A DNA stretch of 4,379 bases. Source: a virus. Lineage: Duplodnaviria > Heunggongvirae > Uroviricota > Caudoviricetes. The translations under genes and the position numbers were made by a program. The stretch spans positions 1 through 4,379 of the IMG/VR virus record IMGVR_UViG_648276671_000010. The stretch is one strand, 5' to 3'. The notes beneath the pieces were generated by a model that saw only the letters and a program-made list of their open reading frames with translations, ran no database searches and had not been told where the DNA came from. Below are positions 2,238-3,876 of this stretch, in pieces (position 1 is the first letter of the stretch; the number at the start of each line of letters is the position of its first letter).

Positions 2238-2497
2238 GAATCAACTCCCGCAGCTGGTTGTGTGTTAGCCTGATAGTCAACAGGTATGCCATCGGTTGGG
2301 TTGGGGTAAGTATTGCTATCAATCTCGTGCGGGGTCACTACCCACCCTGTTGCTTCACACCAGCGTAAAATTTTTTCCCCCGTAAGTTTCGCCCGTCCAG
2401 TAATGACATGGCTTACCATCCCTTGGGTTGCCCCAACAATTTCAGCAAACTTTTTCTGGGTTATACGGGAATGATGCAAATATTCTCCAAGCTTCAT
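2234..2497 (-). CDS. Cro-like HTH DNA-binding regulator (YdaS-like)
   Basis: Track ORF 2234..2509 (MRRTMKLGEYL...). The internal ATG at 2497 has a GAGG SD (complement of 2503-2506) at 5-nt spacing, whereas the 2509 ATG has none, so the start is placed at 2497 (87 aa). HTH-like motif ITQKKFAEIVGATQGMVSHVITG. First gene transcribed divergently from the repressor. Confidence 0.75.
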   Translation of the reverse strand: MKLGEYLHHSRITQKKFAEIVGATQGMVSHVITGRAKLTGEKILRWCEATGWVVTPHEIDSNTYPNPTDGIPVDYQANTQPAAGVDS

Positions 2498-2527
2498 TGT
2501 TCGCCTCATGTTATGTGATCACGAACA

Positions 2528-2569
2528 TTAATAGCATTGTTATTTTTGAAAGTAAATAGCATCACTATT
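2528..2569 (-). promoter_or_regulatory. PR-like early promoter with two operator sites: site A 2530-2544, site B 2555-2569; -35 TTTACT (complement of 2551-2556), extended -10 TGcTATTAA (complement of 2528-2536)
   Basis: Read on the minus strand: AATAGTGATGCTATT (site B) and AATAACAATGCTATT (site A), centres 25 bp apart, are 7-1-7 inverted repeats sharing a perfect TGCTATT promoter-proximal half. A 17-bp spacer separates the -35 and -10. Predicted start near 2520, about 24 nt before the cro-like ATG. Confidence 0.6.
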
Positions 2570-2604
2570 TCAAAGAGATTAGTAATCTTATTAGAATTGA
2601 AGGT
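2568..2604 (+). promoter_or_regulatory. PRM-like repressor maintenance promoter: -10 TAGAAT 2592-2597, weak -35 near 2569-2574; transcript predicted to start at or next to the ATG (leaderless)
   Basis: TAGAAT ends 7 nt before the ATG at 2605, and no SD sits at usable spacing (AAGG is 1 nt from the ATG). The weak -35 abuts operator site B, whose centre is about -43 from the predicted start. Geometry parallels lambda PRM/OR2. Confidence 0.4.
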
Positions 2605-3104
2605 ATGAAAAGAAAACCCCTGTCAGAGATCGACCTACAAGCAGCCCAGAGACTGAAAGAAATCTGGACGACAAAAAAACTCAACTTGGGTTAACCCAAG
2701 AGCGTGCGGCAGAAATTCTGGGGTTTTCGACACAAGGGGCAGTAAGTCATTACCTAAATGGTCAGACACCTTTAAATCTAGAGGCTGTTATCAAGTTCGC
2801 TGGGTTGCTGCAAGTTCCGCCCGAGTCAATTAGACCAGATATGGCAGACTTGTTACGAATTGTAAGGATGTACCCCCAAGAACCGCAGCAGGATAATGTT
2901 GTCGCTTTACCCGCAGAGATGGAACAATCGGAAAACGAACTTCCGTTTAATATAGAACCTATAGAGCGAGATTTGATCCAGACGTTCAGGGCTTTCCCAA
3001 AAGAAGACAAAGAGAAAATGCTTAAGGAAATGAAGGAGAAAAAAGAATCAATTGAAGAAACCGTTGCGCGGTGGCTAGAGGCGCAAAAAGGTCGTCGCGC
3101 CTAA
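2605..3104 (+). pseudogene. cI-position prophage repressor (XRE/cI-type HTH, PaaR-like, no S24 peptidase domain), interrupted by a 1-nt frameshift in this sequence
   Basis: ATG at 2605 reads MKRKPLSEIDLQAAQRLKEIWTTKKLNLG then TAA at 2692-2694. The HTH continues in the -1 frame (LTQERAAEILGFSTQGAVSHYLNGQTPLNLEAVIKFAGLLQVPPESI...) to the TAA at 3102-3104. Restoring one base in GGGTTAACC gives a 166-aa protein whose N-terminus parallels lambda cI (KKxxLGLSQE). The first canonical start in the downstream frame is TTG 2805, after the HTH. Confidence 0.6.
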
Positions 3105-3121
3105 TCTGAGGAGGTTAGAAC

Positions 3122-3313
3122 ATGAGTACAGCCCTTTCCCCGATAATTTCAGAATTTGAAACAATCGAACAAGAAAACAGCTATAACGAATGGTTACGCA
3201 CCAAAGTGGCAGCAAGCCTCGCAGACCCCTGTCCTGCAATTCCACATGACGAAGTAATGGCTGAAATGGAAAACCTTATTGCTCAAATAGCTTCGACGAA
3301 CAGGAGTGAGTAA
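3122..3313 (+). CDS. type II antitoxin (63 aa), PaaA-like partner of the ParE toxin
   Basis: GAGGAGG SD at 3108-3114, 7 nt before the ATG at 3122. Its stop overlaps the toxin start (TAATG at 3311-3315). Small acidic protein; the motif SEFETIEQENSYNEWLR matches my memory of PaaA2. Starts 17 nt after the repressor stop, so it is co-operonic with the repressor. Confidence 0.75.
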   Translation: MSTALSPIISEFETIEQENSYNEWLRTKVAASLADPCPAIPHDEVMAEMENLIAQIASTNRSE

Positions 3314-3603
3314 TGCTACCCATTTTATGGCTACCTTCTGCGCGTGATGATTTGCGTGAGATTGTGACCTATATTGCCAAAGAAAGCCCTCCCGCTGCAC
3401 GTAGACTAAAAATGCGCATTGAAACATCAGTTTTGTCACTAACTGAGCACCCTTACCTGTATCCACCAAGCGAAAGAGTTCCAGGCCTTCGTGAGATAGT
3501 GACCCATCCTAACTACATAATACTTTACCGAGTAACAGCATCTAACATCGAGATCGTAAATGTAGTTCACACACGAAGGCAGTATCCAAACAAAAGCTGT
3601 TAA
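3313..3603 (+). CDS. parE: type II toxin, ParE/RelE superfamily (ParE-like, 96 aa)
   Basis: AGGAG SD at 3302-3306. Typical ParE/RelE length and motifs (N-terminal LPILWLPSARDDLREIVTYIA; C-terminal GLREIV...YRV...IEIVNVVHTRR). Translationally coupled to the upstream antitoxin. Confidence 0.85.
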   Translation: MLPILWLPSARDDLREIVTYIAKESPPAARRLKMRIETSVLSLTEHPYLYPPSERVPGLREIVTHPNYIILYRVTASNIEIVNVVHTRRQYPNKSC

Positions 3604-3617
3604 TCATTCCTGCCAAC

Positions 3618-3639
3618 AACCACCTTTGGGTGGTTTTTT
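3618..3639 (+). terminator. intrinsic (rho-independent) terminator ending the repressor-antitoxin-toxin operon
   Basis: Stem AACCACC (3618-3624) pairs with GGTGGTT (3629-3635), loop TTTG, followed by a T-run to 3639. Lies 15 nt after the toxin stop. The reverse complement has no trailing T-run, so it is unidirectional. Confidence 0.6.
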
Positions 3640-3658
3640 CTTGCTCTTCAAAAAAAAC

Positions 3659-3700
3659 AATAGCATTGCTATTTACACAACAAAATATCAATGCTATTGT
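3659..3700 (+). promoter_or_regulatory. PL-like early promoter with two operator sites: site C 3659-3673 (perfect AATAGCA-T-TGCTATT), site D 3684-3698 (AATATCA-A-TGCTATT); -35 TTTACA 3672-3677, extended -10 TGcTATTGT 3692-3700
   Basis: Same 15-bp inverted-repeat motif, same 25-bp centre spacing and same overlap with the -35/-10 as at PR. 17-bp spacer. An A-run (3650-3657) lies upstream. Predicted start near 3707. Confidence 0.6.
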
Positions 3701-3876
3701 TCATTCATCAACCCACCCCGCCCCACAGAATGCAGGGCAATACTTCGAGTTACCAGGTAGTGGTCAGGGGTTAAGTAGCCAGCCCGAGGCGTAAGAACAT
3801 GACGGCAGGGTTCAACTTTAACTATGCAGCAGGTTTTTGTTCCGCTACCCCGGCGTTAAGGGGAAATGAGGTCAGC

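Follow-up and report, generated by a model that had tools for sequence, protein, structure and literature searches.

Frameshift in the cI-position repressor gene of an Escherichia coli TA280 prophage is probably a homopolymer undercall in the deposited draft

The repressor gene that occupies the cI position in the immunity region of a prophage of Escherichia coli TA280 is split, in the deposited sequence, by a single-base frameshift. Our analysis indicates that this split is probably technical, a run of eight A's having been undercalled as seven, and that the gene is intact in the organism. The window (the whole stretch of DNA analysed, 4,379 nt) is identical (100%) to the final 4379 nt of scaffold GL884358.1 in the E. 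coli TA280 assembly GCA_000176655.2 and makes up a complete contig, which starts directly after 564 N. The gene as deposited consists of two pieces in different frames, and a homopolymer at their junction marks where the base is missing:

2605–2694, + strand: 5′ part of the repressor gene, read in the 0 frame, from the ATG through 29 codons (MKRKPLSEIDLQAAQRLKEIWTTKKLNLG) to the TAA at 2692–2694
2679–3104, + strand: 3′ part of the repressor gene, read in the −1 frame, TQLGLTQERAAEILG… up to the TAA at 3102–3104
2673–2679, + strand: A7 run, where the base is actually missing; the corresponding sequence is G+A7 or G+A8 in relatives and A8 in the closest sibling; the 0-frame register of the run is A_AAA_AAA

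A sequence-only reading of the window had described the short product, 29 aa from the ATG at 2605 to the TAA at 2692–2694, and the continuation of the gene in the −1 frame to 3104, and both are plainly seen in the sequence. The −1 frame is open from 2601 to the TAA at 3102–3104, with a translation that includes …KKTQLGLTQERAAEILGFSTQGAVSHYLNG… and …KKTQLGLTQERAAEILGFSTQGAVSHYLNGQTPLN…, and the first ATG, GTG or TTG that it contains is TTG 2805. Insertion of a single base yields a protein of 166 aa, the same length as in every close homologue, residues 27–74 of which (~2682–2825) match Pfam HTH_3 (E 1.5e-9). Since TTG 2805 lies beyond the HTH_3 region, a product initiated there would be without the DNA-binding helices, and the earlier statement that the −1 frame has no start before TTG 2805, and hence gives no DNA-binding product from a downstream start, is confirmed.

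The lesion stands alone. Between positions 227 and 4036 it is the only frame-breaking coding indel relative to the nearest complete genome, and the remaining genes of the window are intact, as judged from ORFs, Pfam matches and alignment to that genome. In-frame coding indels relative to relatives were found at 369–371 (3 nt) and 1292–1297 (6 nt). General prophage decay was considered as an explanation and rejected, because the other genes are intact and the other coding indels are in-frame.

Where the base is missing could be defined by alignment. The sequence-only reading had placed the repair within GGGTTAACC (2688–2696) and, although it was right that one added base gives a 166-aa protein, the alignments with relatives, with the closest sibling and with lambda cI all put the site at the A-run, 10–20 nt upstream of GGGTTAACC. 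Against two complete E. coli genomes a single gap opens between C2672 and the A-run at 2673–2679: the relatives read GAC GAC G AAAAAAA CT or GGC G AAAAAAAA T, and the window GAC GAC AAAAAAA CT. The closest sibling, a contig from the sequencing run ERR4097512 described below, reads GACGAC-AAAAAAAA. The junction given by alignment is …TTKK-TQLGLTQ…, as against the …KKLNLG-L-TQ… proposed earlier; the 166-aa products of intact relatives contain …WTTKKTQLGLTQERAAEILG…, and KKKNELGLSQE of lambda cI aligns to KKTQLGLTQE of the restored protein. A repair inside GGGTTAACC was accordingly discarded, since it restores a frame but creates a KKLNLG-L-TQ junction that is absent from all homologues. Comparison with orthologous genes, suggested earlier as a check on the frameshift, found the orthologues to be one base longer, with the extra base at the A-run and outside GGGTTAACC.

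We then looked at how the short allele is distributed. The gene occurs at 92–97% identity in 70 complete E. coli genomes and, among the 40 matches listed, every one exceeds the query by a single base and carries the annotation of an intact helix-turn-helix protein. A 76-nt probe over the site had an identical copy in none of 69 complete E. coli genomes. A pattern accepting either allele found the short one in none of 33 IMG/VR contigs and none of 6 metagenome contigs, all of which have the longer form; the same pattern had no match in species-representative genomes, which is uninformative, and the phage GenBank collection held no near match. At the protein level, all clusters of at least 77% identity (with more than 1000 contigs represented) are 166 aa long, and no exact match to the truncated products (29, 87 and 99 aa) or to the restored 166-aa protein was present in a collection of 15 billion proteins. 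Among these ~15 billion proteins, the exact alleles of the PaaA and ParE proteins encoded downstream of the repressor were found only in TA280 and in the read sets SRR024214 and ERR4097512. One further genome, GCA_902845955.1, was considered as a possible resequencing of TA280 and rejected, as it has a different immunity cassette at 2313–3712, and for this reason it carries no information on the A-run.

ERR4097512 is the source of the independent evidence for A8. Its Logan contig ERR4097512_416 (967 nt) corresponds to window positions 2637–3602, from which it differs, over 966 nt, by one extra A alone (GACGACAAAAAAAACTC), and its repressor frame is open to the contig edge (155 aa). The contig covers the repressor-paaA-parE operon alone, from 32 nt past the ATG to the toxin stop. 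The ERR4097512 assembly yielded no full-length copy of the TA280 ydaS, replication or DUF977 genes, an absent contig being weak evidence. TA280 (GCF_000176655.2; phylogroup D, from an eastern quoll) is among the 18 strains used by Rousset et al., who performed Illumina stranded RNA-seq of the strains (E-MTAB-9036; preprint May 2020), and the date of that preprint fits the ERR4097512 run number. A literature search found no mention of ERR4097512, of SRR024214 or of the assembly accession and, because no paper or supplement lists the run, we infer its link to the TA280 RNA-seq: given the uniqueness of the alleles, the shape of the contig and the date, ERR4097512 is probably 2020 Illumina RNA-seq of TA280. 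The contig shape and the unrecovered lytic-side genes fit a transcript assembled from RNA-seq of a lysogen in which the repressor is active. If the contig derives from RNA, its A8 could in principle stem from transcriptional slippage, the slipped transcript then necessarily being the majority species.

Evidence on the quality of the older data came from the TA280 contig and its reads. At its start the contig repeats, over 179 nt, the final 177 nt of the contig before it (2139–2315 of the TA280 stretch examined), with two 1-nt indels and one N as the differences between the copies. Moreover, a G at position 108 is missing both from the other copy and from the 99%-identical prophage in GCA_902845955.1, and it splits a gene of ~93–100 aa into small minus-strand ORFs at 4–102 and 99–206; this extra G at the contig end is probably a second sequencing frameshift. 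Thus, single-base indel errors are present within the TA280 contig itself. The Logan contig SRR024214_1577 (2046 nt), from what are probably the original TA280 reads of ~2009–2010 (on the basis of accession number and alleles), has A7 as well, and over 2044 nt it departs from the window in just two homopolymers: T7 becomes T6 at 2021, which cuts ydaT to 110 aa, and A5 becomes A6 at 3084, near the 3′ end of the repressor gene. Because the window agrees with relatives at both 2021 and 3084, these reads are unreliable for runs of 5–7, and a run of eight would be worse. H120, a draft genome from the same 18-strain panel, has been reported to be full of such frameshifts.

Sequencing or assembly error, which the sequence-only reading had listed as an alternative, is the best supported explanation, given an A8 in a contig identical over 966 nt, other indel errors in the same data and an allele that is in no other genome. 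The error could have arisen as follows. Ahead of Lys-Lys, the TA280 lineage has the Thr codon ACA, where relatives have ACG or GCG, and an ACA codon makes the run an A8 homopolymer (ACA AAA AAA ACT), compared with which the window is one A short. The old draft reads, most likely of pyrosequencing type, would have called this A8 as A7, and the A7 call would in turn create an apparent −1 frameshift with a stop codon 13 nt further on; what the cell makes would be the 166-aa repressor.

A real mutation, that is, replication slippage from A8 to A7 in the sequenced TA280 clone that inactivated the repressor and left a recent pseudogene, seems to us unlikely, if still worth weighing. The deposited assembly and the Logan assembly of SRR024214, both made from the old reads, have A7, so most old reads apparently read seven, and a real mutation would look alike. 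A8 runs are genuine mutational hot spots, and a clone of 2009–2010 could differ from a stock of 2020. On the other hand, the sole independent data set for the sequence (ERR4097512, which we assign to the strain on the grounds given above) has A8 and an open frame, and the same old reads miscall shorter homopolymers nearby in a contig with further indel errors. A real mutation would also have struck a region otherwise without lesion and, as the allele is in no other genome, it would have to be very recent. Recovery of the repressor operon from ERR4097512, without full-length ydaS, replication or DUF977 genes, fits an active repressor too, albeit as weak evidence. Loss of the repressor need not kill the cell, since the switch of prophage CP-933P is bistable and its ydaST-on cells survive (PMC8630535). 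Were the mutation real, the immunity switch would be in the ydaS-on state, with paaA-parE transcribed only from unrepressed or alternative promoters; the cI-like repressor of the prophage switch and of the ParE operon would be missing, and TA280 would carry a natural 'switch-locked' mutant. Such a truly broken repressor, with derepressed PR and PL as had been envisaged from the sequence, is not favoured by our data, which point to the A8 undercall.

Far less probable still is that A7 is real and that a full-length repressor is nonetheless made, either by a −1 ribosomal slip on A_AAA_AAA aided by a hairpin or by an A added by RNA polymerase. The run does form a slippery heptamer in the 0-frame register (A_AAA_AAA at 2673–2679, codons aca/aaa/aaa), and a −1 slip or one added A would restore exactly the wild-type …TTKKTQLGLTQ…. 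It is also followed by a potential stem-loop:

2685–2700, + strand: perfect 16-nt palindrome CTTGGGTTAACCCAAG, which encodes LGLTQ and forms a 6-bp hairpin, 5 nt past the A-run

With its 5-nt spacer, this 6-bp hairpin has a predicted energy of −8.3 kcal/mol (z = −2.5), and in an E. coli IS family the same heptamer, when combined with a stem-loop, has been proven to direct −1 frameshifting; because runs of seven A's are prone to slippage and indels, genes avoid them (PMC4066793). However, the hairpin is simply the LGLTQ coding sequence, which is found in intact alleles too and is imperfect in the commonest (C7-type) allele; it is also short, and shuffled sequences fold as well as the wider region does (z = +0.54). 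A search of the window against Rfam returned no match. The A8 of the RNA-like ERR4097512 contig would be compatible with an added A, but only a minor share of the product would be expected from slippage on seven A's, and A8 is the dominant path in that contig. Furthermore, the two-frame arrangement was seen in 0 of 69 complete genomes and 0 of 39 viral or metagenome contigs, and close protein clusters are all single-frame. As no orthologue has two frames, a conserved programmed signal is excluded, and the suggestion of programmed −1 frameshifting, made earlier as the lesser alternative, finds no support: the A-run is no programmed signal, and could at most be leaky if A7 is real. If recoding did take place, it would be of the 'saviour' kind, setting a low repressor dose and biasing a bistable prophage and toxin-antitoxin switch.

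If, as we prefer, the A8 was undercalled and the repressor gene is intact, the locus is a complete immunity region with the following elements besides the repressor gene:

3122–3313, + strand: paaA-type antitoxin gene, 63 aa (Pfam PF21217, 1.2e-20; PDB 3ZBE PaaA2, 6.4e-22)
3313–3603, + strand: parE-type toxin gene, 96 aa (Pfam PF05016, 2.6e-18; PDB 5CW7_B ParE2, 2.4e-37)
3618–3645, + strand: terminator-like hairpin, then a T-run, past the operon
2234–2509, − strand: divergent ydaS-like HTH gene (HTH_3) in the Cro position
1812–2237, − strand: ydaT-like gene in the cII position (Pfam PF06254; PDB 8BT1 CP-933P YdaT, 3.6e-81)
2569–2597, + strand: promoter-like TTCAAA-17-TAGAAT, a consensus match only, ending 7 nt before the ATG at 2605
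2530–2544 and 2556–2569, unstranded: operator-like palindromes AATAGCAnnnnCTATT in the 95-bp divergent intergenic region
3659–3673 and 3684–3698, unstranded: two more copies of the same palindrome AATAGCAnnnnCTATT, 3′ of the terminator of the toxin-antitoxin operon, in a PL-like arrangement

The assignment of the gene to the cI position of a lambdoid immunity region, made from the sequence, held up, as its N-terminal domain is homologous to the DNA-binding domain of lambda cI: residues 2–82 of the restored protein match the latter by phmmer (PDB 1LMB/1LLI/3BDN, E ~1.6e-9). The same is true of the proposed antitoxin-toxin operon headed by the repressor, for PaaA2 and ParE2 homologues lie downstream, the parE ATG at 3313 overlapping the antitoxin stop (TAA 3311–3313) by one base. 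On the divergent side, a replication gene and a DUF977 gene come after ydaS-ydaT. Neither the repressor nor parE is called at the locus in the TA280 annotation, even though parE (3313–3603) is intact.

The C-terminal domain of the repressor is short and helical. No match to the S24 domain (PF00717) was found on the restored protein, and just one distant homologue has that domain; without an S24/LexA-type autocleavage domain, the repressor would not be expected to allow RecA-dependent induction. The C-terminal 64 aa are common to repressors at the PaaR position, with 58% identity to the repressor of GCA_902845955.1, which has the same position and a different HTH. Some relatives of 240–255 aa combine a cI-type HTH, a second and different HTH and the shared C-terminal domain, and look like tandem fusions with two specificities. 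In GCA_902845955.1, prophage flanks that are 99% identical surround a different repressor, Cro analogue, paaA and parE, a pattern of immunity-module swapping in which the recombination boundaries of the cassette lie inside the ydaS-like gene and just past the OL-like operators.

Signals for expression and control could be recognized around the operon. The ATG at 2605 has no usable Shine-Dalgarno spacing and, together with the location of the promoter-like site, this suggests, by analogy, a leaderless repressor mRNA like those of paaR2 and lambda cI (PMC8630535). The transcript-like ERR4097512 contig begins at 2637. The 14–15-bp palindrome AATAGCAnnnnCTATT is present in four copies (7 strand matches compared to 0.17 expected), of which the two downstream overlap a + strand promoter-like site at 3672–3700, and these copies are probably, judging from the comparable phage systems, the OR- and OL-type operators of the immunity type. 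The repressor would bind these AATAGCA…TGCTATT palindromes flanking the operon and, co-transcribed with paaA-parE, it would silence the divergent ydaS-ydaT-replication operon; we infer these operator and repression roles by analogy with PaaR2 of CP-933P. In the O-like replication gene, (C/T)GTGAC repeats form two clusters 260–270 nt apart, at 1301–1352 (five copies) and 1571–1616 (four), and TCTGTCGTGAC… is repeated exactly in them; these are iteron-like, suggestive of an origin located within the gene, like that in lambda O. Adjacent tandem GTATCT hexamers at 1271–1299 encode (Thr-Asp)n in the replication protein, with a 6-nt in-frame length difference relative to GCA_902845955.1.

The finding is an ordinary one, and its main value lies in correcting the reference annotation of TA280. 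GCF_000176655.2, which is in use for CRISPRi and RNA-seq work, mis-annotates the locus, so that analyses based on it would miss the repressor and parE; and apparent pseudogenes at A/T runs in such assemblies need read support before they are given a biological interpretation. In this regard the case resembles the homopolymer artefacts of early draft genomes, in which a single-base error in a run of 7–8 likewise splits a conserved gene and other run-length disagreements likewise occur in the same read set and contig.

Compared with known repressors, the TA280 protein aligns with lambda cI over the N-terminal 80 residues, including the arm KKKPL and the HTH, and its gene has the same map position, divergent from the Cro-position gene, but it is without the C-terminal S24/LexA-type autocleavage domain and is followed by a toxin-antitoxin pair rather than by rexAB. 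RacR and DicA, of the Rac and Qin prophages of K-12, are similar in arrangement, being short HTH repressors divergent from ydaS-ydaT-type genes, and ydfA-like (DUF1391) genes are also located downstream here, plus dicB in relatives; to our knowledge, no paaA-parE pair follows RacR or DicA. The closest likeness is to prophage CP-933P/Sp12 of E. coli O157:H7, where PaaR2, YdaS and YdaT are the analogues of cI, Cro and cII (Jurenas et al., 2021; PMC8630535). PaaR2, which is leaderless and has no autocleavage motif, binds repeats in a 97-bp intergenic region and at a downstream PL-like promoter (PMC8630535). Its gene has the same position and orientation as the TA280 repressor gene, first in a three-gene operon with a PaaA2-family antitoxin and a ParE2-like toxin and divergent from ydaS-ydaT across a spacer of 97 bp (95 bp here). 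Like the TA280 protein, PaaR2 combines an HTH at the N-terminus with the lack of an S24 peptidase domain, its locus likewise has palindromes both in the intergenic region and downstream, and the promoter-like site of TA280 would be suitably placed for a leaderless mRNA. The two proteins differ in that the one described here has 166 aa and starts with MKRKPLSE, whereas PaaR2 starts with MQKKE and is ~15 kDa with a His tag, the likeness being drawn from locus and neighbours, with the sequence of PaaR2 compared by its N-terminus only; and the TA280 copy, as deposited, is frameshifted. The operator also differs, AATAGCA…TGCTATT here and GTTTAGTAA as the CP-933P consensus, which indicates another immunity specificity. 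The locus is thus a further immunity variant of the characterised PaaR2/YdaS/YdaT switch of CP-933P.
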